Of a DNA stretch of 57,911 nucleotides, positions 1 to 57,911 are shown piece by piece. The notes beneath the pieces are model-generated. The model was not told the origin of the DNA. It made no database searches and saw nothing but the letters and a program-made list of their open reading frames with translations. The stretch is from a virus (Duplodnaviria; Caudoviricetes): IMG/VR virus record IMGVR_UViG_3300027777_000041, positions 1-57,911 of that record; one strand, 5' to 3'. Each line of letters starts with the position of its first letter. Position 1 is the first letter of the stretch. The position numbers were made by a program, and so were the translations under genes.

Positions 1-43
1 GGGGGGGGGGGGCCCGGGGGGGGGGGGGGGGGGGGGGGGGGGG
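1..43. other. Poly-G tract at contig end (probable two-colour sequencing artefact or unresolved G-rich terminus)
   Basis: Almost pure G run at the very start; the far end (57882-57911) is also G-rich. Confidence 0.6.
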
Positions 44-238
44 TATGCTTGGGTTGGTTTGTACATCCTAGGATGTATGGGTGTTTGATGTGCCGAAGGG
101 ACCCAAATGGGGGGGGGGTACTCAAGTTGGTTTGTAAATACTGGTTTGTGGGGAGGTTTGAAGAGGGGGGAAAAGGGACCCAGACCGGCCCGGCCTCTTG
201 CCCAGCTTGTGTTACTCCGGTCGTCGTCAAGGGTACCT

Positions 239-275
239 GAACAAAACAAGAACAAACTTAGAACAAAACAGGAAC
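239..275 (+). promoter_or_regulatory. Tandem alphaproteobacterial LexA (SOS) boxes, GAAC-N7 x4
   Basis: GAAC at 239, 250, 261, 272 with exact 11-bp period; matches GAAC-N7-GAAC (=GTTC-N7-GTTC). Confidence 0.8.
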
Positions 276-308
276 AAATGCGGAGCGCGTCAGCATGAGC
301 GCGGCTAT

Positions 309-324
309 TGTTTCACGTGAAACA
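309..324. promoter_or_regulatory. parS: parS site 1
   Basis: Perfect palindrome TGTTTCACGTGAAACA, the chromosomal ParB-binding consensus. Confidence 0.9.
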
Positions 325-335
325 TTCTGCGCGGT

Positions 336-361
336 GTTCTTGCTTTGTTCACGGTTTGTTC
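336..361 (+). promoter_or_regulatory. Tandem LexA boxes, GTTC-N7-GTTC-N7-GTTC
   Basis: GTTC at 336, 347, 358. Confidence 0.8.
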
Positions 362-382
362 TGGCAACATAAGCTTGGCCTA

Positions 383-398
383 TGTTTCACGTAAAACA
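383..398. promoter_or_regulatory. parS: parS site 2 (one mismatch)
   Basis: TGTTTCACGTAAAACA. Confidence 0.8.
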
Positions 399-423
399 TT
401 CTTGGTTTGTTCATGGTTTGTTC
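398..423 (+). promoter_or_regulatory. LexA boxes, ATTC-N7-GTTC-N7-GTTC
   Basis: ATTC 398, GTTC 409, GTTC 420. Confidence 0.75.
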
Positions 424-430
424 TGCCGGA

Positions 431-456
431 GAACAGACCAGTAACAGAACGGGAAC
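431..456 (+). promoter_or_regulatory. Degenerate LexA boxes, GAAC-N7-TAAC-N7-GAAC
   Basis: GAAC 431, TAAC 442, GAAC 453. Confidence 0.55.
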
Positions 457-479
457 GCCCCCAACACAAGCTTGGCCTA

Positions 480-495
480 TGTTTCACGTGAAACA
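480..495. promoter_or_regulatory. parS: parS site 3
   Basis: Perfect TGTTTCACGTGAAACA. Confidence 0.9.
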
Positions 496-553
496 TCGCG
501 TCAACATGAACGTGGCTTTATACTGGAGCGGTGGACACATGGCATTGTGTCAG

Positions 554-569
554 TGTTTCACGTGAAACA
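554..569. promoter_or_regulatory. parS: parS site 4, abutting the terS stop codon
   Basis: Perfect TGTTTCACGTGAAACA. Confidence 0.9.
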
Positions 570-1223
570 TTAGGAGTCTTCATGCTTTGCCGCCAATAGC
601 AGTTGGCGCAATGAGTCGCGCTGCTCTAGCGACAGATCACGGGCGGAAACGTTTAGCGTATTGTGGTTGACCGTCACTTGCGCTGGTTCATTGGCCAGTC
701 TTTCAGCGTAAACCTTGGGGGCAAGCTTTCCCGCCATTCTTAGTCTGGTATCCACTCTGAGCTTGTCCCTAGCAATAGCAGCGTGGTTAATCTCCCCCGC
801 CTTTGTCACGTCACGCGAGTCGTCATCTGCTATATCTAGACATTCCTGAAACAATGTATGCGCTGCATGTTCGCGGGCGCGCCCGTATTTTTCGGCGAAA
901 AGTGGCTCTAAAGCAATCCAGTCATAAACCGTCGATATATGCGGCATGTAATCCAGTGTCGCGCATATATTGTTCAGGCTCTGGCCGTTCGCCATGCGAG
1001 TCACTATCTCGTCGCCTAATGCTTCAGTGTATTTGATCCTAGGCTTTCCCTGTCTAGCTATTGCGTCCGCCTTGGCTCTAATCACTTCCCATGCTTGTGA
1101 CTCTTCTATTGCTTGGGCTTCATTACGCTCTTTACGGGCTTTGAGCTTTTCTTGCGCCTTGTCAGTGGACTCGCCAATGGGCTTGGCGGATTTATTGCGT
1201 TCCTGATTCATAGCAGACTCCAT
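570..1223 (-). CDS. terS: Terminase small subunit (Sf6-like)
   Basis: KYTEALGDEIVTRMANGQSL..IC...PHISTVYDW...F.EKY.RARE...IADD...RDKLRVDTR..MAGKLAPKVY pattern of Sf6-type TerS. Confidence 0.85.
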   Translation of the reverse strand: MESAMNQERNKSAKPIGESTDKAQEKLKARKERNEAQAIEESQAWEVIRAKADAIARQGKPRIKYTEALGDEIVTRMANGQSLNNICATLDYMPHISTVYDWIALEPLFAEKYGRAREHAAHTLFQECLDIADDDSRDVTKAGEINHAAIARDKLRVDTRLRMAGKLAPKVYAERLANEPAQVTVNHNTLNVSARDLSLEQRDSLRQLLLAAKHEDS

Positions 1224-1299
1224 GCTAGATAGAGTCTATATATAGCACAAAGCGCCACGGTGTGAACCATGACGCTTCATGTTATTGCTAAGTTATAGT

Positions 1300-1857
1300 T
1301 TACTTTGGGCGATACCCTGAGATTGCATTTCGCCCCTTGACAGTGATAGCACCCGCCTTGTTCATCAATTCCAATTTAATTAGGCGCGCTTTAATTGCTT
1401 CTAATTCACCCGCATCAATTCCCATGCGGCGCGCTTCATCAGCCCGCGCAAAGCTTTTATAAGCGCAAATGATATACAAAACCGTCTTTTCACATTCCGC
1501 AAGTTCACAATAATCATGAGGCACAAGCTTCACAATATCATCGGGGTGAACGTAAAACGTCAAGCCCATATCTTTCCCGCAGAATATCGAATGCTGGATT
1601 AGACAGAAGCCCGGCCTAATCTCCACTGTCTTTTCAGACCGGCTTGCATTCCAAGGCGCGCCATCCTGTCCCGGCAAAGTGGCGACAGAGCCGCTTGCAA
1701 GTGACACAGCACTAAACAAGTCCCGTGAACCCTCAGACCACAAGCCCGCATCAGCAGGTATTGTGAAGCTTGTGCAAGCCCGCGCTTTGAAAGCTTTACC
1801 TTCATAACCATGACGCAAGAAAGCCGGAACCTGATTCTTTTCAAGATGATGTAGCAT
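1300..1857 (-). CDS. Hypothetical protein, possible C-terminal winged helix
   Basis: 185-aa ORF, AGGTGA RBS; C-terminal ARRMGI...LIKLELMNKAGAITVKG. Confidence 0.65.
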   Translation of the reverse strand: MLHHLEKNQVPAFLRHGYEGKAFKARACTSFTIPADAGLWSEGSRDLFSAVSLASGSVATLPGQDGAPWNASRSEKTVEIRPGFCLIQHSIFCGKDMGLTFYVHPDDIVKLVPHDYCELAECEKTVLYIICAYKSFARADEARRMGIDAGELEAIKARLIKLELMNKAGAITVKGRNAISGYRPK

Positions 1858-2035
1858 GTTTCACCTATTGCTTTGCTTGTGCTTGTTTCTACCTTTACAG
1901 TGTCGTCTATTAAGCCGATTCAGTCTAATCGTTTATTCCGATAATTGCGCCGCTTTCCATCGAATCAAACGATTGGAACCATATAAGGATTCGCGCTATT
2001 GTCTTTTCATAGGCAAACAACACGGGACAACGCAA

Positions 2036-2281
2036 ATGCACTACGCACAAGACCACCTAAAGGAAATTGCCCGCAAGTCAATACAGGCGTCCGATGATCT
2101 TGCCTGTATGTTCATGCACATTGCAGACATTGACGCGAAACAAGCGCAAGACCTTGTGCAATTCTACATTCGAAAAAAGCTTGTTAAGCTTGATTTGTGC
2201 ATGGGTCGCTATACGGTCAAACACGGCATGTATTTGGACCGTGAATTTATCGAACATGTTGTGTTGCGCGGCGCGTTCTAA
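2036..2281 (+). CDS. Hypothetical early protein
   Basis: ATG at 2036 within ORF 1856..2281. Confidence 0.65.
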   Translation: MHYAQDHLKEIARKSIQASDDLACMFMHIADIDAKQAQDLVQFYIRKKLVKLDLCMGRYTVKHGMYLDREFIEHVVLRGAF

Positions 2282-2347
2282 CATTGCAAATCAGCGCCGA
2301 TTACGGTCGGCGTCAATGTGCAATGACGCACACAATGGAGTCCAGTC

Positions 2348-2428
2348 ATGCAAGGAATCATCGAAGCGGTTATTGCCGTGGTCGCGTTGGCATGGGTCGG
2401 TGCGGTCGTCGCGCTTGCTTTCATCTAA
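2348..2428 (+). CDS. 26-aa single-TM peptide (not in ORF track)
   Basis: GGAG RBS; MQGIIEAVIAVVALAWVGAVVALAFI*. Confidence 0.6.
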   Translation: MQGIIEAVIAVVALAWVGAVVALAFI

Positions 2429-2440
2429 TAGGAGTCGGTC

Positions 2441-2608
2441 ATGCAATACATCATTAGAAAGACGGTCGGTCGGTCGGTCCAGTGGACCATATCAGAACAT
2501 CACCACAATAACGTCATAGGGTCTTATCCTACACGTAAGCAAGCGGTCATGGTTGCCCGGTTGCTTGCAGGGTGGAATGGGTCGGTCAGTGTGGAGTCGG
2601 TCAGATGA
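2441..2608 (+). CDS. 55-aa hypothetical protein (not in ORF track)
   Basis: AGGAG RBS; MQYIIRKTVGRS...SVESVR*; ATGA overlap with the next gene. Confidence 0.65.
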   Translation: MQYIIRKTVGRSVQWTISEHHHNNVIGSYPTRKQAVMVARLLAGWNGSVSVESVR

Positions 2609-2748
2609 GACAAGAAACCATTCGGTTAAAGACGTACAACGGCGCGAAACGTCGCGCCCCTTGGGCGGCGGTCATTGCCCGAATTTATGGCGGATTTATC
2701 GCCTTTGAATCGGTCGATGACTTTATAAGATGGAAGGGTCAACAATGA
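2605..2748 (+). CDS. 47-aa hypothetical protein (not in ORF track)
   Basis: MRQETIRLKTYNGAKRRAPWAAVIARIYGGFIAFESVDDFIRWKGQQ*; ATGA-coupled at both ends. Confidence 0.7.
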   Translation: MRQETIRLKTYNGAKRRAPWAAVIARIYGGFIAFESVDDFIRWKGQQ

Positions 2749-2966
2749 AAGTAGAACCAGCACCCTATAGCCTTGCTTGGTATACCAGACTCGCCAGTGG
2801 CTTATCGGTCGGTCAGCTACAGTATGCTGTCCGGGATATACACGCCACCCTACCCATATACCGTGAGCGCGACACACGCGACCCCTATGTAGCCAAGCTG
2901 TTAGCCGAAATGGACGCCTTCACTAGCGAAATGACACTTAGGAAACGTAAAGGGAATCGGTCATGA
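2745..2966 (+). CDS. Hypothetical early protein
   Basis: ATGA-coupled chain. Confidence 0.7.
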   Translation: MKVEPAPYSLAWYTRLASGLSVGQLQYAVRDIHATLPIYRERDTRDPYVAKLLAEMDAFTSEMTLRKRKGNRS

Positions 2967-3193
2967 AACATGAAACAATCACGCCCGGACATGCGGCATA
3001 CATCGAAGATTGTGCTCGGAAACCTAAATACGATACAGGCGAATTGCGCCGGTCATGGGAAATCCTAGATGACCTGACACGCTGGTCATGGGAGCGTGAA
3101 CCCACGCCCCGCGACTGGTCATCATTTCCTAAAGAGGAAATTGGCATTTCGGAGCAGTCCGCATGGTACGACACTAGTGCGGAGCTTGCCTGA
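2963..3193 (+). CDS. Hypothetical early protein
   Basis: ATGA-coupled; 76 aa. Confidence 0.7.
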   Translation: MKHETITPGHAAYIEDCARKPKYDTGELRRSWEILDDLTRWSWEREPTPRDWSSFPKEEIGISEQSAWYDTSAELA

Positions 3194-3293
3194 GATAATC
3201 AATATACGCCACAATAGCAGCGGCTCCCATCAAAAGAGCCGGTGCTACAAAAAACATTAGCATAGCAATAGCAAGAATGGCTTCATCGGTCAT
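3174..3293 (-). CDS. Possible 39-aa membrane peptide, antisense to the early operon
   Basis: MTDEAILAIAMLMFFVAPALLMGAAAIVAYIDYLRQAPH fills the gap between + genes. Confidence 0.4.
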   Translation of the reverse strand: MTDEAILAIAMLMFFVAPALLMGAAAIVAYIDYLRQAPH

Positions 3294-3413
3294 GGTCGGT
3301 CGGTCCTTTGGTCGGTCGGTCGGTCGGTCAATGCGCTTGCATTGCATCGGTCGGTCGGTCATCGGTCGGTCGGTCATAGGTCATAGGTCATAGGTCAACA
3401 TAGGAGATCGGTC
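3287..3413 (+). repeat. (GGTC)n / ATAGGTC short-repeat tract
   Basis: About 19 GGTC copies in ~127 bp in runs of 3-5, with a central CAATGC-gctt-GCATTG inverted repeat. Confidence 0.9.
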
Positions 3414-3414
3414 A

Positions 3415-3639
3415 ATGGCAAAACGATATTTCATCGAAGCTTGTAATGAGCCGCGTGGAGAAGGCAATGGGTGGGATTTATGTACTGATAGTGAAGCTAA
3501 ATGCTTTATGGTATGGGAGGTTACGGATGGCCTGATAGAAGAATGCATAAGCACTTTTCTTACACGTAATGAATCAGAAAAATACATCGGTCGCATTATA
3601 AGGGAATCGGTCAATGGCATGGGTAAGGATGACAGATAA
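3415..3639 (+). CDS. Hypothetical early protein
   Basis: AGGAG RBS; 74 aa. Confidence 0.7.
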   Translation: MAKRYFIEACNEPRGEGNGWDLCTDSEAKCFMVWEVTDGLIEECISTFLTRNESEKYIGRIIRESVNGMGKDDR

Positions 3640-3907
3640 AGAGAGGACGCCAAAGTTTGGTGATCCTTATATGATACAGGTGGTCTGTAGGTCAGATGCA
3701 GAAGCAGATGAAATAGAAGGACTCGCCAGTGCAGACCCGCGTTGGTCAAGAGTAATTATCATGGCTTCACGGGTCTATAAGCGCGCCGATATACCCGATA
3801 GGGTGGTCGAAACAATCACAGCGGAACAGTTTCGGTCAGGCGGTTTCCCCGTTGACCGGGCTGGAGTCATCGGCTACACTTTACCAGTCTCAAACAAAGG
3901 GGGTTAA
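3629..3907 (+). CDS. Hypothetical early protein
   Basis: Overlaps the previous stop; ORF 3614..3907. Confidence 0.65.
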   Translation: MTDKERTPKFGDPYMIQVVCRSDAEADEIEGLASADPRWSRVIIMASRVYKRADIPDRVVETITAEQFRSGGFPVDRAGVIGYTLPVSNKGG

Positions 3908-3908
3908 T

Positions 3909-4133
3909 ATGCATACGCAACATCTTCAAATTACAGACACAGACGGTGACACCATTACGTTCTGCTTTGACAATGATAGCAAGCAAATCGAAGTGGTCAG
4001 TTCATGTGATGATCTTGAAGCTTCGGTCGTCACATACATCAACCGCAAAGAAGTGAAGGCGCTTCAGTCGTTTCTAGACATGTTTACCGCACATATGTAC
4101 CGTCTTGAATCATTTGATGGAGACGACCTGTGA
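3909..4133 (+). CDS. Hypothetical protein, paralogue of 4130..4360
   Basis: HLQITDTDGDTITF...EVKALQSFLD resembles QLEVMDDDGDYMTF...DIREIKNFLD. Confidence 0.7.
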   Translation: MHTQHLQITDTDGDTITFCFDNDSKQIEVVSSCDDLEASVVTYINRKEVKALQSFLDMFTAHMYRLESFDGDDL

Positions 4134-4360
4134 GATCACATCAGCTTGAAGTCATGGATGATGACGGCGATTATATGACGTTTGAAACCAACAGTGCGGA
4201 TCCGGGTGCAGTTGCAATCTCTTGGACCGCTAAACTGACCGATGGATCTTTCAAACAAATTGCTTCGCTTATGTTCGATATTGACGATATTCGGGAAATC
4301 AAGAATTTCTTAGATATTGCCTGTCGAAATCACATAAAGTCCGAACTGTTTGCGGACTAA
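4130..4360 (+). CDS. Hypothetical protein, paralogue of 3909..4133
   Basis: GTGA overlap; followed by a terminator. Confidence 0.7.
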   Translation: MRSHQLEVMDDDGDYMTFETNSADPGAVAISWTAKLTDGSFKQIASLMFDIDDIREIKNFLDIACRNHIKSELFAD

Positions 4361-4362
4361 AG

Positions 4363-4386
4363 AAAGGGGGCTACGGCCCCTTTTTT
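4363..4386 (+). terminator. Rho-independent terminator
   Basis: GGGGC-TACG-GCCCC hairpin plus T run. Confidence 0.8.
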
Positions 4387-4389
4387 CTA

Positions 4390-4418
4390 TTGACCCGCAA
4401 AGTGATTCCTGGCATATT
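4390..4418 (+). promoter_or_regulatory. Sigma70-like promoter
   Basis: TTGACC-N17-CATATT upstream of ORF 4451. Confidence 0.6.
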
Positions 4419-4450
4419 GTCAGTGCCACAAAGGCAACAGGAGAAACCAA

Positions 4451-4675
4451 ATGTACTATCTTATCAATGACGACTCTGAAATGTCTTTTGCCCAGCAAAT
4501 CGCAATATGCGACACTTTTCACAACATCGCCAATGCCGTGCGTCGGGCAGACGCCCTCAAAACTAAGACCGGCCTAAATTGGTCTGTCGTTAAACTGGAA
4601 AGCGTTTATACAACACAGACTTTGCATGAAGCTATGCTTAAGTCTCCAGACGTTCCGATGATGGAACGGGCCTAA
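4451..4675 (+). CDS. Hypothetical protein in its own promoter-gene-terminator unit
   Basis: AGGAG RBS; flanked by two near-identical terminators. Confidence 0.75.
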   Translation: MYYLINDDSEMSFAQQIAICDTFHNIANAVRRADALKTKTGLNWSVVKLESVYTTQTLHEAMLKSPDVPMMERA

Positions 4676-4680
4676 CAGGG

Positions 4681-4704
4681 AAGGGGGCTACGGCCCCCTT
4701 TTTA
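4681..4704 (+). terminator. Rho-independent terminator at convergence point
   Basis: AAGGGGGC-TACG-GCCCCCTT plus T run. Confidence 0.8.
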
Positions 4705-5581
4705 TTTTGTGTATGTCGTTCCAATCGGTTCCCGGCAAATCAGGTATTCTAATCTCTACACCCAACTTGAACTGAACAGCAAGCCTATTGGCAAGCCGAT
4801 AGGCCGCAGCCTGACCTGTATAATTTAGGTCATTGTCGCCAAATACATACACAACCTTGGCAATTTCAGGCGGAACCCACTTAGCCAACAGGTTGGCGTT
4901 TACACATGCCCAAACTGGCATATCAAACAAGATGCTGGCGCTGATCGCAGTTTCAATGCCCTCTGCTACCCCCATAATGCCAGCAGCGGGCGCAAGCCTA
5001 ATGGCACAACCCTCTGGCAAGCTGCCCGGCAAGACCTTTCGATTAGGGGTTATGTCAGCCTTTTGGCCATCTTTGGTCAGGTAGGTCACATGTAAATTCA
5101 CTGGCTTGTCGTCTGATCCAGCGATCTTGGCGATCAGTGCTATTTTGTCGCACCGCTCTCTAAGGGCTTTAGAAGGCCACTGGCAGCCAAAACGGTTCTG
5201 TAGGTAAAGAGATACCGGGGAACCCTCTTCCGGCTCTACGGCCCCGTCCCAGACTGATTGCATGAGCCTTCGCTGATCGTTTTTAGGCTTGGCTGAATGT
5301 TGCTGGTTCAAAGTATTGGATATACCCAGCTCACATGCGATGGAATCAGCCACCTGTCGGAAAGACTTGCCAGTGACTTTCATCGCCAATGTGAACCCAT
5401 CCCCAGCACCACACTGGGAACAGAAGAAAGATCCAGAACCATCCCGATCATCAAATCGAAACCGATCTGTTCCGCCGCACACAGGACAACTGACGTGCTT
5501 TCCCGTCAAAAACCTTGTGTCTATGCCAAGCGCCGGTAATAACTCCCGCCACCTACCACGCGCCGCATCAGGTATTTTCAT
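4688..5581 (-). CDS. DNA primase (P4 alpha-type Zn ribbon plus Toprim)
   Basis: CPVCGGTDRFRFDD...CSQCGAGDG; GVAEGIETA; FGDND; DWND. Confidence 0.9.
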   Translation of the reverse strand: MKIPDAARGRWRELLPALGIDTRFLTGKHVSCPVCGGTDRFRFDDRDGSGSFFCSQCGAGDGFTLAMKVTGKSFRQVADSIACELGISNTLNQQHSAKPKNDQRRLMQSVWDGAVEPEEGSPVSLYLQNRFGCQWPSKALRERCDKIALIAKIAGSDDKPVNLHVTYLTKDGQKADITPNRKVLPGSLPEGCAIRLAPAAGIMGVAEGIETAISASILFDMPVWACVNANLLAKWVPPEIAKVVYVFGDNDLNYTGQAAAYRLANRLAVQFKLGVEIRIPDLPGTDWNDIHKIKRGP

Positions 5582-5786
5582 CTTTGTCCCCTAAAGAACA
5601 ATCTGTTGTCTCTAAAGCCTCCAAAATAATCGTTCGGGCCAATATATTAGCTCCCCAATCGCCAAGGCTAAGAATCTCCTTGAGGGCGTTTTCCAGTTGT
5701 TCAATTCGAACAGTAGCAGCTTTCAATTCTGAAAGCGCATCTTGCACTACATACTCCAATTCTGAAACGTAATCGGGGTCAATCAT
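5568..5786 (-). CDS. Small coiled-coil cassette protein
   Basis: RIEQLENALKEI...ALE motif shared with the cassette family. Confidence 0.65.
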   Translation of the reverse strand: MIDPDYVSELEYVVQDALSELKAATVRIEQLENALKEILSLGDWGANILARTIILEALETTDCSLGDKDENT

Positions 5787-6123
5787 CTTTCCCCTCCAGT
5801 GCGTTGACGCCTAATTTACGGTTACGAGCTTCCTCAAAATCCGCCTCAGTCATCAGCGCATTGTTGGCGATGATGATCCGATTTAGGAGCAGCGAGTGCA
5901 TGTCAATCGCGTCTTGGGGCGTAAAATCGGGATACCGGTAAACCCCCTCGGGGTCCGCCAACGCGATTGGCCGCCCAAGTTCCCGCAGCGCCGCCTCCAG
6001 CCTTTCGATGCGGTCGGCGGCTTCGTGTCGCTCTGACCATAGCACAGTTCGCGCTTCGCGGTGGCGCTGTCGATCTCCGGGCAGCTCATCTGCGCGCAGT
6101 CGTTTCACAAGATCATCGCTCAT
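5779..6123 (-). CDS. 'MSDDLVKRLR...LEAALR...ALEGKDD' cassette family protein
   Basis: Conserved N-terminal, middle and C-terminal blocks shared with neighbours. Confidence 0.75.
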   Translation of the reverse strand: MSDDLVKRLRADELPGDRQRHREARTVLWSERHEAADRIERLEAALRELGRPIALADPEGVYRYPDFTPQDAIDMHSLLLNRIIIANNALMTEADFEEARNRKLGVNALEGKDD

Positions 6124-7550
6124 TCTTTCCCCTCCAGTGTTTTGGCAACCTCTATGCGGGCCTTTGCAATTGCAAAGTATTCGCTGTTCATTTCAATTCC
6201 GATGAAATCAAAACCTTCTAACATCGCGGCTTTTCCAGTGCTACCACTTCCCATGAACGGGTCAAGCACTGTTCCGCCCGGCTGCGTCACAAGGCGGCAA
6301 AGATAGCGCATGAGGTCGGTGGGTTTGACCGTCGGGTGGTTGTTGGCCTCGCCACGATCTTTCTTGGCTGTCTTGGCGCAGTAGAAGAAGCGGGCGGCAG
6401 AGCCGGTGTCGCCGTAGCCTGTCTCTTGTTCGCCCGTTATATTGAGCCGCCCAGACATGGAATTTGTGTCATGCGCTTTGCGGCGGGTTCCGGGGTTCCC
6501 GCTTGTTGTCTCAGGAAACAAGTCCAACACCATCTGCGATCCGTCATGGATCAGGTTGGCGGGCCAGCGGCCAAGTGGCGATGATTTAACCGTTCCACGC
6601 GGAAGGCTTACAGTATCGCCGCTTTGCTGCTTTGATGTTGTCCATGCGCCATTTCCGCCAAGGCGAGGGTCATCTATATTTGGGTCAGTTTCAACCCTAC
6701 ACCCATCCACATTGATCGCCCCCGTCCCATGCGCCAGCACGTTCTCGGCCACCGTCCCGATCAGCGGCTTGCGGGCAACAGTGATAGGCTCCAAGGCGGG
6801 CTTGAGGGCGGTGCCCCATCCATCCCATTGCTGGGCGGCTTCGGTGGCGGGGGCTGTAAGATTTTCAACGCCATAACCAAAAATAGATTTGTTATTTTTA
6901 TTAGCGTCAGCCGCAGCCATTGTAACGCCAGATGTTTTTGCTTTTTCAACATCGCCACGAATTTTCTGCCCAATAACCTCCCGCTCCGCACCCGCCGCCT
7001 TATCAATCGCCTTACTCACATCTAGCGACTTCGGGAATCCAGACCCGTAAACCCATGCGATCATGTCGCGGATTTCAAAGCCAGCATCCTCAATTCCAGA
7101 ACACATGCGATGGTGTGTTCTCGTTCCGGCAAACGCCAGCAGATGGCCGCCCGGCTTCAAGACGCGGTAGCATTCAGAGGCCCATTCAGTCACCCACGTC
7201 TGAAAAACCCGCATCCGGTCTCCCCCACTGTGCTTTGGCTTTGGGCTGTCACATGTGCAGCGAGAGCCACCTTTACCAATCAACATTTTGCATTTTTCGC
7301 AACGATTCAAATTTGAGCCGGTGAATGACGGCCAAGATGTTTCGCGCTCACCAATTCCGGGTTCGCTGAACCCGCCACTTACCTGTTTCCAAGGCGCATC
7401 CCAATCCTTCCCCATAAACTCTAGGCCATAGGGCGGGTCGGTCACGATGGCGTCCACTGAGTTGTCAGGAAGCTCCCGCAGCCGCTCAAGGCAGTCACCC
7501 AACATCAAATTAATCTCGTTCATTTGCCGCCTCACAAGATCGTCAGTCAT
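6120..7550 (-). CDS. DNA methyltransferase, N4-C/N6-A (beta class)
   Basis: GDCLE...IVTDPPYG near N-terminus; HPTVKP...VLDPFMGSGSTG near C-terminus; start 7550 or 7523. Confidence 0.9.
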   Translation of the reverse strand: MTDDLVRRQMNEINLMLGDCLERLRELPDNSVDAIVTDPPYGLEFMGKDWDAPWKQVSGGFSEPGIGERETSWPSFTGSNLNRCEKCKMLIGKGGSRCTCDSPKPKHSGGDRMRVFQTWVTEWASECYRVLKPGGHLLAFAGTRTHHRMCSGIEDAGFEIRDMIAWVYGSGFPKSLDVSKAIDKAAGAEREVIGQKIRGDVEKAKTSGVTMAAADANKNNKSIFGYGVENLTAPATEAAQQWDGWGTALKPALEPITVARKPLIGTVAENVLAHGTGAINVDGCRVETDPNIDDPRLGGNGAWTTSKQQSGDTVSLPRGTVKSSPLGRWPANLIHDGSQMVLDLFPETTSGNPGTRRKAHDTNSMSGRLNITGEQETGYGDTGSAARFFYCAKTAKKDRGEANNHPTVKPTDLMRYLCRLVTQPGGTVLDPFMGSGSTGKAAMLEGFDFIGIEMNSEYFAIAKARIEVAKTLEGKE

Positions 7551-7740
7551 TTGTCGCCTCCAGTGCTTTGCGGGCAATGAGCTTCATGGTCTTCGACACG
7601 GCGCAGCAGTCCCAATCCGTGGACAGCTCTCGCAGCGCCGCCTCCAGCTTCTGGATACGGTCAGATTGTGACTGTAACTTGCTTGCCGCAGCATCGGATT
7701 CCCAGCTTCCGTTAGCGCGTAGCATTTCAACCAGCGTCAT
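7543..7740 (-). CDS. Cassette family protein
   Basis: MTLVEMLR...DRIQKLEAALR...ARKALEATND. Confidence 0.7.
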   Translation of the reverse strand: MTLVEMLRANGSWESDAAASKLQSQSDRIQKLEAALRELSTDWDCCAVSKTMKLIARKALEATND

Positions 7741-12027: not shown

Positions 12028-12258
12028 TCATTTATCAAGAGACTTTTGCGCCGCAATTATAATTTCCCTATTTTGTTGCACCCATTTCAGGGTCTTTAAT
12101 GCAGCTTCAACGGCGGGTAATCTTTTTTCCGTGTCATCAAGAATTTCTTTTGGACGCTCACCTTTGGCGACGTACCGGCGCACAAGATTAATGTAGCTAC
12201 GATGGTTGCGGACCACATCATCAAGGGCTGCAACTTGATCGTCTATGCCGATTTTCAT
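12028..12258 (-). CDS. Hypothetical protein
   Basis: ATGA-coupled; 76 aa. Confidence 0.7.
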   Translation of the reverse strand: MKIGIDDQVAALDDVVRNHRSYINLVRRYVAKGERPKEILDDTEKRLPAVEAALKTLKWVQQNREIIIAAQKSLDK

Positions 12259-13430: not shown

Positions 13431-13784
13431 ATGAACCTGAGCCCAATCCAGTACACCTTAGACGAACATGCGCTCACGCCAGACATCTACCTGTATGGCA
13501 AGCTAGACATCCTCATTGACCATGTGGATGATATGCCCTTCATTGATTCCTTTGAGCTTGTGCGCGTAGTGAACCTTGACGAAGAAAATGAAGAGCGCAC
13601 GGAAGTTATTTTTGTAAAGGACAAGGACAACGAACCGATTGCATGTGCCGTGTGGACCATGCTAAATCGTGATGAAAAGCTCATGAACGACATCTTCGAT
13701 GATTGCGCCCGCGAAGGTATGTGGGCGGCAGAAGACGACGCAACCGACTTTAGACTGCAAGCCCGCCGTGATGGCGAATACTAA
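13431..13784 (+). CDS. Acidic hypothetical protein
   Basis: AGGAG RBS; 117 aa, D/E-rich. Confidence 0.75.
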   Translation: MNLSPIQYTLDEHALTPDIYLYGKLDILIDHVDDMPFIDSFELVRVVNLDEENEERTEVIFVKDKDNEPIACAVWTMLNRDEKLMNDIFDDCAREGMWAAEDDATDFRLQARRDGEY

Positions 13785-17290: not shown

Positions 17291-17761
17291 ATGAAAACTG
17301 TAATAAACCCTAATACGGATGCAATCATTGATATGTGGCAGACGGGCCTATCCGGCGGACAAATTGCTTGCAGGCTTGGCATTACCCGAAATGCAGTTAT
17401 GGGCATTCTTGGGAGAAGCCGCGCTGCTGGTAAAATTGACTACCGGATAGATATGGAACGGATTAGAAATATCCGGGCTGATGTTGCTGAGATTGAACAA
17501 AAAAGGGCGTCTGTTATTGGTGAGTTTTTGCAGATAGCAATTGCCGGTGGTGATTTGCCTAGCAACAAACCAACCAGTGGCATCACGCTGATGAAACTGA
17601 AACCAAGTTCTTGCCGATATATTATCGGAAGAAATGTGGATGATGAATTTTTGTTCTGTGGAGAACAACGCGGAGCATCATCATACTGTAAAACCCACCA
17701 CAAACTTTGCTATACACCCTTGTCAAAGCTGAAGGAGAAAAACTATGTTGTTACAGCTTAA
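17291..17761 (+). CDS. gcrA: GcrA cell-cycle regulator homologue
   Basis: N-terminal W..GLSGGQIA.RLGITRNAVMG..R; C-terminal TLMKL....CRYIIG...FCG......YC..H...Y. Confidence 0.88.
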   Translation: MKTVINPNTDAIIDMWQTGLSGGQIACRLGITRNAVMGILGRSRAAGKIDYRIDMERIRNIRADVAEIEQKRASVIGEFLQIAIAGGDLPSNKPTSGITLMKLKPSSCRYIIGRNVDDEFLFCGEQRGASSYCKTHHKLCYTPLSKLKEKNYVVTA

Positions 17762-53291: not shown

Positions 53292-55013
53292 TTAAATTGG
53301 GTATAGCGGTTCGTAAGTATTATTGCCCTTGAACGTAAACCGGCTTTCGTTGTCCGCTTCCCATTCTTCGCCACGCATAATCGCGCCAGTATCGCGCAAA
53401 TGGCGCATTGCCATGCTTACGGTGTCTACAAGGTCGTCATGTTTTGCTTTTGGAAACTGGCCTACTTGGGTAATTACCATGTCAGCCCATTGTTTGTTGG
53501 GGGCATATACCAGTCCTTCGGCAAACAAATGCTGGACGGAGTACAGTCTGGCCAATTTATCTTGGCTTTTTGGGTCAAACATGTGAACCCCAAATCGCTC
53601 ATGCCCGTACATGCGCCGGATTTCCTGCGCTACGGAGAACCCAGCGGCTTTGTTTTCGATCAAAAGCACGTCTACTTTTAACTTTCGGCAAGTTTCTGAC
53701 ACTTTTTGAACTAGATCGTGCAACTCATGCCGCCCCTGCCATGCATACATAAGCATAACTTTAGGCGATACTTCAGTATAATTTCTTGCTGCATCCACTA
53801 ACCCACCATGTCGGCCACCGGCATGGGTGGACGCTTGCACGGAAATGGCACTAGAAAACACCCCCCACACCGTCATGGCGGATGGGTCGTTTTCTGTTTT
53901 GGTGGTATATGCGGTATCTAATGTAGCAATTACTAGGTCCATGTTTGGGTAGTTGGGAGAATCCCAAGGTTGCCACCAGTCACGTTTAATAATACCGCCG
54001 CCTTTGGGTTCTGGTCTTTGCTGGAGCTGCCCCGCCGCGGCCCAAGGACCTAACTGCTTTTCAAGGATAGCAACTTCGGTTTCACCAAACCGCTCAGGCC
54101 ATAAAAGCAAACCTTCGCGCTTTTCCAATTCAACTTCGGCTTCAAACGACACAGGGATACGGTCGCCATTTTTGGCAACACTAACCAGTGCTTCACCTTC
54201 ATCATTTGTGCCACGCGGGTCATTCCAACCAATTGATGTTGCGGAGTGCCTGTTCCATTCGTATCGCATGGGCAAACACAAGTGTGTCCACTCACCCATG
54301 TTCTTTGACATGATATGTCCGGTTAGGTCTTCTTCTGAAAGCCTCTGCTGGATGACAACAAAGGCACCCGTTTTGGGGTCATTGAGGCGCGTGGACAGGG
54401 CAGAGTCCCACCAGTCAATTGTTGATGCGATGGTAGCTTCTGAGTGGGCTTCTTGCGCTGCATTGGGATCATCGACAACAATAATAGAGCCGCCTTCGCC
54501 AGTAAGTGCGGAGCCCACCGATGTGGAAAGACGCGAACCATTTTTGTCATTATCAAACCTTGTCTTGGTGTTTTGGTCACTGGTTAGTTTGAACCTATCA
54601 CCCCACAAAGATTGATACCACGGGCTTTCAATCAAGCGCCTGCACTTAACCGAATCGCGCAACGCAAGCTGCTGGGCATAGGATGAGTGCAATAGTTGCA
54701 CTCCCGGCCCAGAGGTAGGAGAGATCCACGGTTGTGCCCAGATCCATGCAGGAAAGGCGCAAGATGTAATAGATGATTTACCCATGCGGGGCGGAATATT
54801 GATGATTAGCCGCCTAATGTCACCATCAACAACGGCTTGCAAATGTTCCGCAATAGCTTCGATGGGCCACCCCTCTGTAAAAGGAGAGGCATCAATGTAC
54901 CGCCAAGCATGTTTTAGGAACGTGTACAGGCTGTCTTCACAGTCTGCGCGGTCTAGTTCCTGCAACTGCCTTTCAATGTCGATATGCTTGCCGTCAAGGT
55001 CAAGCGTCGTCAA
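53292..55013 (-). CDS. terL: Terminase large subunit
   Basis: INIPPRMGKS (Walker A); IVVDDP; QQRP; LDTA; IENKAAG; HDDLVD; TTG start at 55013 with GGAG RBS. Confidence 0.93.
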   Translation of the reverse strand: MTTLDLDGKHIDIERQLQELDRADCEDSLYTFLKHAWRYIDASPFTEGWPIEAIAEHLQAVVDGDIRRLIINIPPRMGKSSITSCAFPAWIWAQPWISPTSGPGVQLLHSSYAQQLALRDSVKCRRLIESPWYQSLWGDRFKLTSDQNTKTRFDNDKNGSRLSTSVGSALTGEGGSIIVVDDPNAAQEAHSEATIASTIDWWDSALSTRLNDPKTGAFVVIQQRLSEEDLTGHIMSKNMGEWTHLCLPMRYEWNRHSATSIGWNDPRGTNDEGEALVSVAKNGDRIPVSFEAEVELEKREGLLLWPERFGETEVAILEKQLGPWAAAGQLQQRPEPKGGGIIKRDWWQPWDSPNYPNMDLVIATLDTAYTTKTENDPSAMTVWGVFSSAISVQASTHAGGRHGGLVDAARNYTEVSPKVMLMYAWQGRHELHDLVQKVSETCRKLKVDVLLIENKAAGFSVAQEIRRMYGHERFGVHMFDPKSQDKLARLYSVQHLFAEGLVYAPNKQWADMVITQVGQFPKAKHDDLVDTVSMAMRHLRDTGAIMRGEEWEADNESRFTFKGNNTYEPLYPI

Positions 55014-55188
55014 GCGGCGGCTCCGGCAAATCAATCCAATGGCTGAAGGGGTTTGCAGGATCAAGACCACCTTCGGAGGTCCACTGGTCTTCCCAGTCGT
55101 CCCACCAAGCAATTTCAATCATGTATCCATTCCATGCCAGAAAATCCCGGTCTTTGGGGGCAGTGTCAACAGTTTGCCAATCCATCAC
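55000..55188 (-). CDS. DUF551-like protein
   Basis: WQTVDTAPKD...SHWIDLPEPP. Confidence 0.75.
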   Translation of the reverse strand: MMDWQTVDTAPKDRDFLAWNGYMIEIAWWDDWEDQWTSEGGLDPANPFSHWIDLPEPPLDDA

Positions 55189-56951: not shown

Positions 56952-57028
56952 ATAAAGCTCCAGCCGGGTGTCTCTGATAACACCCTACACAATAAATTGA
57001 CGCCACGCTAGGGGTTGACGTTATTTAA

Positions 57029-57057
57029 TTGACGACACCATACCTAGCCAGTAATGT
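57029..57057 (+). promoter_or_regulatory. Sigma70-like promoter for the tRNA transcript
   Basis: TTGACG-N17-TAATGT; further TTGACG copies at 56997, 57015, 57059. Confidence 0.6.
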
Positions 57058-57062
57058 ATTGA

Positions 57063-57124
57063 CGCCTACTGGTGTTTGCCCGTGCCGGTCACATCGAAAG
57101 ATAGGCGCTCTGCAAAAGGGGCAA
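57063..57124 (+). ncRNA. Candidate structured RNA (three-way junction plus pseudoknot) in the tRNA leader
   Basis: P1 CGCCT/AGGCG; P2 ACTGGTG/TGCCGGT; P3 ATC-GAAA-GAT; loop TTGCCC complementary to downstream GGGCAA. Confidence 0.45.
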
Positions 57125-57133
57125 CGGACTTTA

Positions 57134-57207
57134 TCCCGCGTCGTCCAAAGGTAGGACATCTGACTTTGACTCAGGCAATCGTGGTTCGAATCCATGCGCG
57201 GGAACCA
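57134..57207 (+). tRNA. trnQ: tRNA-Gln (anticodon TTG)
   Basis: Acceptor TCCCGCG/CGCGGGA; D arm GTC..GAC; anticodon loop CTTTGAC; GGTTCGAATCC T arm; encoded CCA. Confidence 0.93.
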
Positions 57208-57222
57208 AACAAGGGGGTAGTC

Positions 57223-57429
57223 ATGAAGTGGAAGCCGATCAAGAGTGCGCCGAAAGATGCAGCGGAGTTGCTGCTGTGGGCTGAAGGCAAACTCACCAAT
57301 GAAGGGGTGGCTTGGATGGGTATCTGGGAGCCCGAAGACGAACAGTGGCATGTGCTGGGATATGACATGGTGATTAATCCGACGCACTGGATGCATATCC
57401 CGGAGGGGCCGAAGGTGGTTAAAGAATAG
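57223..57429 (+). CDS. DUF551-like protein
   Basis: MKWKPIKSAPKD...NPTHWMHIPEGP. Confidence 0.75.
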   Translation: MKWKPIKSAPKDAAELLLWAEGKLTNEGVAWMGIWEPEDEQWHVLGYDMVINPTHWMHIPEGPKVVKE

Positions 57430-57543: not shown

Positions 57544-57804
57544 ATGAAGTGGCTTATCGAAAAGATCATGTCCTATCCAGTTCCTAACAAGGAGTTCGGA
57601 CTGTTCTACATCCCCGGCTTTGAGTGGGTTGCTGAGTTCTGCAACAGCAACGAAGAGAACGATGGTTGCGTCCTTGGCGAAGTTGAAGGCGACTACCGTG
57701 GTTTTGGCTCCACCCCCGAAGAGGCTCTGGAAGACCTGATCGAAGAGCTTGAGCTTTGCGATTGGGAAGACGCGGAAGAGGATGAAGAGGAAGAGGAAGC
57801 CTAA
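57544..57804 (+). CDS. Very acidic small protein
   Basis: AAGGAG RBS; GFGSTPEEALEDL; C-terminal EDAEEDEEEEEA. Confidence 0.75.
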   Translation: MKWLIEKIMSYPVPNKEFGLFYIPGFEWVAEFCNSNEENDGCVLGEVEGDYRGFGSTPEEALEDLIEELELCDWEDAEEDEEEEEA

Positions 57805-57842: not shown

Positions 57843-57871
57843 CAGGGGACCCACAAGTCCCCTGTTTTTTT
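57843..57871 (+). terminator. Rho-independent terminator
   Basis: CAGGGGAC-ccacaa-GTCCCCTG-TTTTTTT. Confidence 0.8.
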
Positions 57872-57911
57872 GTGCCTATATGGGGCAGGGGGACCCGGAG
57901 GGGTGGGGGTA

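Follow-up and report, generated by a model that had tools for sequence, protein, structure and literature searches.

Which protein reads a bacterial centromere on the genome of a phage that has no partition genes, and what would the phage gain from it? This question is raised by a stretch of about 260 nucleotides beside the small terminase gene of a phage from freshwater, in which four sites of the chromosomal parS type were noticed. ParB-CTP loads at parS, clamps the DNA and slides along it, and it recruits ParA and SMC and, in alphaproteobacteria, also PopZ and MipZ. The ParABS system has been studied as a device of chromosomes and plasmids, and its one well-known use by a phage, in phi29, is tied to sporulation. 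The window, that is, the whole stretch of DNA that was analysed, corresponds to an entire virus record of IMG/VR; it measures 57,911 bp and has a GC content of 50.7% (CheckV 100% complete; IMG/VR class 'linear').

Four parS sites beside the small terminase gene

Based on a scan of the whole 57,911-base record, the palindrome TGTTTCACGTGAAACA is present three times with 0 mismatches (309-324, 480-495 and 554-569), and TGTTTCACGTAAAACA, which is parS with 1 mismatch, is located at 383-398; no further parS-like match with up to 3 mismatches was found elsewhere in the 57,911 bases. In 100 dinucleotide shuffles the mean number of parS matches was 0.14 and the maximum 2, and a number of 4 was reached in 0 of the 100. 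The original prediction had listed three perfect 16-bp sites and one with a single mismatch (starting at 309, 383, 480 and 554), had judged four matches to be very unlikely by chance and had placed the last of them against the stop codon of terS. All three statements were borne out: the sites are genuine and chance does not account for them, and parS 4 runs straight into TTA (570-572), which on the minus strand is the TAA stop codon of ORF 570-1223. As terS is encoded on the minus strand, the array lies 3' of it. Related left flanks, which form repeat family D1, are found at each parS, with 19 nt of left flank common to parS 2 and parS 3, and the spacings are 74, 97 and 74 nt (Table 1).

By their sequence the sites are of the chromosomal type, being 16-bp palindromes that match TGTTTCACGTGAAACA. 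Their carrier, however, is not a cellular chromosome with oriC and parAB nearby, but a complete phage genome without parA or parB. The claim that partition genes are lacking held within six-frame HMM searches of the whole record for ParB_N, AAA_31 and CbiA. ParB_N (PF02195) and AAA_31 (PF13614, ParA) gave no match, and CbiA (PF01656) gave only a 17-bit P-loop match, below the cut-off, inside the helicase. In the records of five relatives ParB_N was not found either. The array is not part of a ParABS cassette, in which parA and parB of the phage itself would stand beside the centromere.

Table 1. Coordinates of the parS array and of the features discussed with it; positions refer to the window unless a locus is named.
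Feature	Position	Strand	Remarks
parS 1	309..324		perfect 16-bp palindrome TGTTTCACGTGAAACA; near the centre of an imperfect inverted repeat with GAACAAA/TTTGTTC arms
parS 2	383..398		one mismatch, G11 to A
parS 3	480..495		perfect
parS 4	554..569		perfect; abuts the terS stop codon (570-572)
Four GAACAAA repeats, exact 11-bp spacing (239, 250, 261, 272)	239..278	+	from repeat analysis
Two copies of TTCTTGSTTTGTTCAYGGTTTGTTCTG (337-363, 399-425)	337..425	+	inverted partners of GAACAAA; each just 3' of a parS
Poly-G tracts (1-12, 16-43, 109-118), duplicated unit (D3)	1..118		break point of the record and of other assemblies
Small terminase subunit terS, Sf6-like	570..1223	-	PF20901 Sf6_terminase 9.6e-32; phrog_1482 1.7e-30
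185-aa protein with C-terminal winged helix	1300..1857	-	adjoins terS; predicted structure
GcrA cell-cycle regulator homolog	17291..17761	+	PF07750 2.7e-18; NF050816 1.1e-14, below its cut-off
Large terminase terL	53292..55118	-	array about 3.1 kb upstream of terL on the closed map
Terminator-like hairpin plus T-run	57843..57872	+	closes the small acidic ORF 57544-57804(+); hairpin also in L143
parS before an opposite-strand gene in six relatives	L222 3371, L195 1359, L180 2323, L199 2996, L197 3587, L198 3396		gene of about 211-220 aa

Organisation of the genome

Nearly all genes are on the minus strand. The left part of the record encodes a primase, an SF2 helicase, two methyltransferase-like genes, RusA and terS, and the right part encodes terL (53292-55118), portal, capsid and tail proteins, endolysin and spanin. 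A DNA polymerase gene was not recognised among the replication genes, which include primase, SF2 helicase, SSB, RusA and endonuclease VII, and replication therefore probably relies on the host replisome. In contig L143 (5060-5110) a C13 tract is read through into the reverse complement of the right end of the window, and this match takes in the hairpin-plus-T-run terminator. As L143 thus joins both ends, the record represents a closed or permuted genome that was broken at a homopolymer. The array is internal on this closed map, and the break in the record need not place it at a physical end of the DNA. Other contigs also end in or beside the equivalent poly-G/C tract, and the relatives G005 and G006 are assembled through the terS-terL region. 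On the closed map terS is followed by the four parS sites with interleaved repeats, the poly-C units, the terminator, the small acidic opposite-strand ORF, a tRNA-Gln gene, a metallophosphoesterase and terL. The acidic ORF (57544-57804, plus strand) converges on terS across the array.

The first 43 nt of the record are G apart from an interrupting CCC, and its other end (57880-57911) is G-rich; the GGGCCC inside the starting G run may be an assembly artefact. The mechanical ORF 57025-57396(-) encloses the tRNA-Gln (UUG) at 57134-57207 on the plus strand, a tRNA that is kept in L143 and other relatives, and this ORF is for that reason probably not a gene. A near-identity search of positions 1-6000 against 50,697 phage records gave no match, and an Rfam search of positions 1-1300 gave 0 matches at E ≤1. 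No sigma-70-like promoter was found in positions 1-1400, and the same scan for promoters and terminators gave 7 terminator-like hairpins, all weak, versus 1.7 expected. The runs that contain the sequence are all contigs of freshwater metagenomes, with no RNA run among them. In the assembled contigs of four runs no joints or termini were seen, and breaks occurred in the poly-G tract and at position 173. Other contigs of the same freshwater metagenomes match the parS 20-mers only, several of them with two parS about 16 nt apart in GC-rich sequence; they presumably belong to co-occurring organisms, as chromosomal centromeres or as other elements.

Lifestyle and probable host

The phage looks virulent. 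Tyrosine integrase and serine recombinase were not found in six-frame searches of the complete record, and no repressor family was present among its PHROGs and Pfam matches. No prophage relative was detected in one genome each of 185,579 species, in which the best matches had 43%, 37% and 28% identity and came from MAG bins. Many ORFs, including most of the early genes, have no known function.

The host was assessed from a homolog of the cell-cycle regulator GcrA (Table 1). Among 14 named control genomes the GcrA family gave matches only in Caulobacter and Sulfolobus. On the presence of this homolog the host is probably an alphaproteobacterium, a member of a class without endospores; a spore-forming host of the phi29 type is thus not indicated. 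Caulobacter serves here only as a model for the inferred host class. GcrA is also encoded by the relatives G004-G006, with and without parS, and since the parS-less G004 still has it, the link between GcrA and parS is loose. The 485-aa N6/N4 DNA methyltransferase at 6120-7577 was considered as an orthologue of CcrM and rejected, as it scored 91 bits against a cut-off of 830.

Repeats and palindromes around the array

Besides the four repeats upstream of parS 1 (239, 250, 261 and 272), GAACAAA/TTTGTTC occurs at 344 and 355 and again at 406 and 417, with the 11-bp spacing that corresponds to one helical turn. Of the 21 copies in the record, 8 are within positions 1-570, where 0.2 would be expected (40-fold). 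This enrichment was seen only in the window and in L178 and not in the other parS-bearing relatives, and it follows the subclade with similar terS. The GAACAAA repeats are a candidate binding array for a second, subclade-specific protein; recognition by terS at a pac site, or a role as iterons, would fit them well.

Palindromes of the type GGGWCCC/GGGGNCCCC cluster in the gap that contains the array, at 96-105, 173-182, 57435, 57846 and 57890, with 6 of the 8 copies of the record near the junction. In the distant terL clade (L032, L042, L045, L066 and L139) such a palindrome is located just before the terL start codon.

Conservation of parS among relatives

The terL survey comprised 80 loci, 23 with a terL at least 80% identical to that of the window and 57 with 43-79% identity; at least 1300 nt of upstream sequence was available for 20 of the former and 39 of the latter. 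Between terS and terL, 1-5 parS sites (≤1 mismatch) were found in 18 of the 20 close relatives with enough flank, compared to 0 of the 57 loci with terL 43-79% identical. The two exceptions without parS, L179 and L194, have a terL of at least 80% identity. G004, the record behind L179 (complete, 57,560 bp; terL 82%), has no parS anywhere, and G004 and L194 show that at least some relatives can do without the array. In the whole records of G005, G006 and G007 all sites (3, 4 and 4, respectively) form one cluster. The nearest named phages by terL, MW202675.1 (46%) and Roseobacter phage CRP-902 (40%), have no parS with up to one mismatch.

In the three closest relatives by terS (69-80% identity) 3-5 sites each are found immediately after the terS stop codon. 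As the whole intergenic region is 73% identical among these three, the conservation at this distance is not specific to parS. The arrays persist, however, where terS is only 30-57% identical to that of the window, and parS is identical across terS alleles of 30-100% identity. Because parS stays constant while terS varies, terS is unlikely to be the reader of the sites.

Pooling the sites of 18 records gave 55 parS: 48 perfect sites, 7 with one mismatch and 0 with two. The 55 sites comprise 53 distinct 36-mers with unrelated flanks, and in the site logo the base frequencies are at background beyond two A/T-rich positions on each side of parS. Such a pattern is the mark of selection that acts on the 16-20 bp site itself. 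The proposal that a phage without ParA or ParB keeps host-type ParB sites under selection was strengthened in this respect, by their presence in 18 of 20 relatives, the 48 perfect sites, the unrelated flanks and the independence from terS. Six of the 55 sites are altered in one half-site at the adenine in which parS and the Noc site differ, five as TGTTTCACGGGAAACA and one as TGTTTCCCGTGAAACA, which is the same change on the other strand. According to extracts of PMC7383237, this adenine distinguishes parS from the Noc site, and the change may weaken the affected half-sites.

The window, G005 and G006 share ORFs 12028-12258 and 13431-13784 and a tail-fibre gene that are absent from G004. As a search for a partner gene that co-occurs with parS this comparison was uninformative, since it included one complete parS-less genome (G004).

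Host-type parS in other viral contigs

Perfect parS was present in at least 137 IMG/VR stretches, compared to 2 for a control palindrome consisting of the same letters read backwards. For a survey of the flanks, 190 ORFs from 79 IMG/VR parS loci (L005-L084 without L068) were searched against Pfam, and none of the 190 belonged to a ParA or ParB family at E ≤1e-5. The commonest carriers of parS in this survey were phi29-like loci (16/79, with Gp16, Phi29_MCP, protein-primed polB, SSB and connector), and 2/79 were microviruses (L013 and L041). The two microviruses encode a scaffold protein of the Chlamydia-phage type and Rep, with the perfect parS between the scaffold and replication genes.

With tblastn, seven loci were found that have a perfect parS just upstream of terL (L032, L042, L045, L066, L015, L139 and L122). 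Their terL is 25-44% identical to that of the window; five loci show 26-31%, and for L122 and L139 the identity of 37-44% refers to short fragments. A conserved GAAACATGGYCC element follows about 50-70 nt beyond parS in four of the seven. Taken together, the phi29-like, microvirus and distant-terL carriers indicate that orphan host-type parS recurs in several phage lineages.

Discussion

Our analysis leads us to propose, with a probability of roughly 60%, that the four palindromes are an orphan centromere, a set of high-affinity sites that load the chromosomal ParB of the host, on a phage that looks virulent and has no ParA or ParB of its own. Host ParB is favoured as the reader because 48 of the 55 sites match the universal chromosomal consensus perfectly, whichever terS allele accompanies them. 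Four other explanations of the array were weighed against this one.

Since the array adjoins terS, and since all parS-bearing relatives have theirs between terS and terL, it could be a packaging element, as part of a pac or cos site, which would work via terS or with host ParB/SMC as accessory and would mark the start of packaging or separate the units of a concatemer; IHF is such an accessory factor at lambda cos. In the second group of phages, with terL 26-31% identical, one perfect parS also lies just upstream of terL, 8 of the 79 surveyed IMG/VR parS loci are beside a phi29-type packaging ATPase and 2 beside terS, and the 11-bp phased repeats together with the nearby contig breaks resemble a pac region. 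We nevertheless regard this explanation as unlikely, as the parS sequence is fixed while terS ranges from 30 to 100% identity and the putative terS repeats (GAACAAA) vary independently of parS. G005 and G006 were assembled across this region without a break, and the parS-less relatives presumably still package their DNA. Also, the terS-terL gap is the main variable or moron region, containing in the relatives opposite-strand DUF551, RNA-polymerase-alpha-CTD-like and function-unassigned genes, and the co-location may be passive. The hint at packaging initiation that had been taken from the closeness to terS is thus sustained by position, with the arrays beside the terminase genes and always in this gap, but not by co-variation of parS with terS. 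A role in transcription appears improbable to a higher degree. The sites would then be ParB-responsive operators or insulators, and host ParB bound to them would repress or block transcription where the early operon, with terS as its last gene, meets the late operon, until the replicating phage DNA titrates ParB away. Such a role is suggested by six relatives in which a parS precedes the start codon of one and the same opposite-strand gene by 16-17 nt (Table 1), with a DUF551 domain in 3 of the 5 scanned copies of this 211-220-aa gene, and parS and the DUF551 gene together look like an operator-promoter module. These six cases are, however, one homologous module and not independent events. Similarly, 18 of 51 sites are 5-45 nt from an outward-facing start, but 33 of the 51 have no such start nearby. 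The array of the window lies between convergent genes and 0 promoter-like sites were found flanking its four parS. In P. aeruginosa, ParB represses the promoters beside parS3 and parS4, according to the abstracted text of a preprint (10.1101/151340).

It would be more surprising still if the palindromes were read by a phage protein, for which the winged-helix protein encoded at 1300-1857 was the one candidate that could be seen, and their identity to parS were a coincidence or a mimicry that blocks ParB. The fold of this protein is confidently predicted (pLDDT 89.8), its gene adjoins terS and is 90% identical in the closest relative, and residues 116-185 resemble MarR/PadR winged helices in VIA-align (Z 8.1-8.7, rmsd 2.1-3.3 A over 61-71 residues). 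These Z values are in the range that the tool calls common, the family has 329 database relatives and is far wider than the parS clade, and the parS-bearing G005 (complete), G006 and G007 gave no homolog with tblastn or in a second search that had no positive control; tblastn did find the protein in L178. Without host ParB it would be difficult to account for a match to the consensus at 16 of 16 positions in 48 of the 55 sites. We therefore rejected the 1300-1857 protein as parS reader or hidden ParB on account of its absence from G005-G007, the breadth of its family and its generic winged helix. A Foldseek search of this protein against the PDB gave no match at E ≤0.001; it has a confidently predicted beta-rich N-domain, and only the generic C-terminal winged helix was aligned. 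Strongly disfavoured is the explanation that the array is a non-functional passenger, either a captured piece of a host centromere or an assembly chimera. Phages do pick up host DNA, and the record was assembled from a metagenome and breaks at a homopolymer. Against this, many independent contigs and samples show this arrangement, the sites have stayed perfect although they were duplicated and moved into unrelated flanks, no host genes accompany them, and a Logan contig at a depth of 54.8 spans positions 53-2000.

If the host ParB is captured by the orphan centromere, the following sequence of events may be envisaged. After entry and circularisation of the phage DNA, host ParB-CTP dimers would nucleate at parS, form closed clamps and slide onto the flanking phage DNA, and the phage genome would behave as a competing centromere. 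ParA, SMC, PopZ and MipZ would be drawn to the phage DNA, which would be moved, anchored or compacted. As the phage replicates, the 3-4 strong sites per copy would drain ParB from the host centromere. In extracts of PMC5815017, a strong parS on a plasmid is described to decrease the viability of Caulobacter about 1000-fold, and two strong sites to be lethal. Together with the results on phi29 and SGI1, this toxicity makes it plausible that phage DNA acts as a competing centromere.

Several benefits could have been selected, provided that ParB binds. A take-over of host segregation and division appears the leading candidate, with slightly less than an even chance, and the odds are somewhat lower for a role in positioning the phage DNA, or in its inheritance, when an infection is slow or stalled. 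Help with the organisation or packaging of concatemers is a minor candidate, and local transcription control has a smaller chance again. In its furthest form, which we put forward only tentatively, the dose of perfect parS would rise with replication and strip ParB from the host centromere, freezing segregation and division, and orphan parS would be a general, repeatedly evolved strategy. MipZ, PopZ, SMC and the parS-translocation signal for CtrA would be lost together with ParB, and the array would be a protein-free device for host take-over that acts alongside the GcrA homolog of the phage. Translocation of parS is reported in a preprint to activate the CtrA pathway (10.1101/2021.03.08.434431).

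A freshwater phage clade, probably of alphaproteobacteria, thus keeps host-type parS arrays without any partition gene. The arrays of this clade and the excess of parS over the control palindrome suggest that the borrowing or draining of host ParB is more widespread among phages. If the draining of ParB were true, the excess of perfect parS in viral contigs and its occurrence among microviruses, phi29-like phages and two terminase clades would mean that capture of ParB by orphan parS is a general strategy and not a curiosity of phi29. Since ParB in alphaproteobacteria is linked to cell division and polarity, and since additional strong parS sites are toxic to Caulobacter, the phage array could be a natural, DNA-only perturbation of the cell cycle. 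The natural parS-less relatives are built-in controls, and the array is directly testable with existing Caulobacter tools.

Comparison with known systems

With the chromosomal ParABS of Caulobacter and other bacteria the array shares the identical 16-bp consensus and the presence of several sites within a few hundred bp. By analogy, CTP-dependent loading and sliding of ParB and recruitment of ParA, SMC, MipZ and PopZ would be expected, as far as described in extracts of PMC5815017 and PMC7383237. Unlike the chromosomal system, the phage array is not beside parAB or a cellular origin, and its replicon probably kills its host. Also, 48 of the 55 phage sites are perfect; of the sites on the Caulobacter chromosome, the extracts of PMC5815017 call only two strong. 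In the integrative island SGI1, parS mimics hijack the ParABS of the IncC plasmid, so that SGI1 is partitioned and the helper plasmid displaced (PMC10954446, in extract). Like the phage, SGI1 is an element without ParAB that carries the parS of another replicon, and its competition rises with copy number (same extracts of PMC10954446). The victim of the island is its helper plasmid, whereas here the carrier is a phage and the consensus chromosomal. The parABS cassettes of P1, N15 and mycobacteriophages consist of own ParA and ParB with own, non-chromosomal parS, in temperate phages. They resemble the window as phage genomes with centromere repeats, but own ParA/ParB and genes for a temperate lifestyle were not found in the window.

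In phi29 the parS sites are spread over a 19-kb protein-primed genome. Here, in contrast, a compact array lies in the terS-terL gap of a 58-kb phage that packages its DNA with a terminase. The text of PMC2731898, as extracted, describes with reference to Meijer et al. (2005) five parS that are read by host Spo0J and used for entry into the spore; along with Spo0A boxes, they serve to trap the phage genome there. Both phages are without partition genes and carry several host-type parS, and phi29 is classed as lytic. Since GcrA marks alphaproteobacteria, which are without endospores, the rationale of entrapment in a spore cannot apply to the phage studied here. In the titles and abstracts searched there was no description of host-type parS on phages of non-sporulating hosts. 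The precedent of phi29 lowers the novelty: the principle was already known from that phage, and the conserved arrays on phages probably of alphaproteobacteria are the new part.
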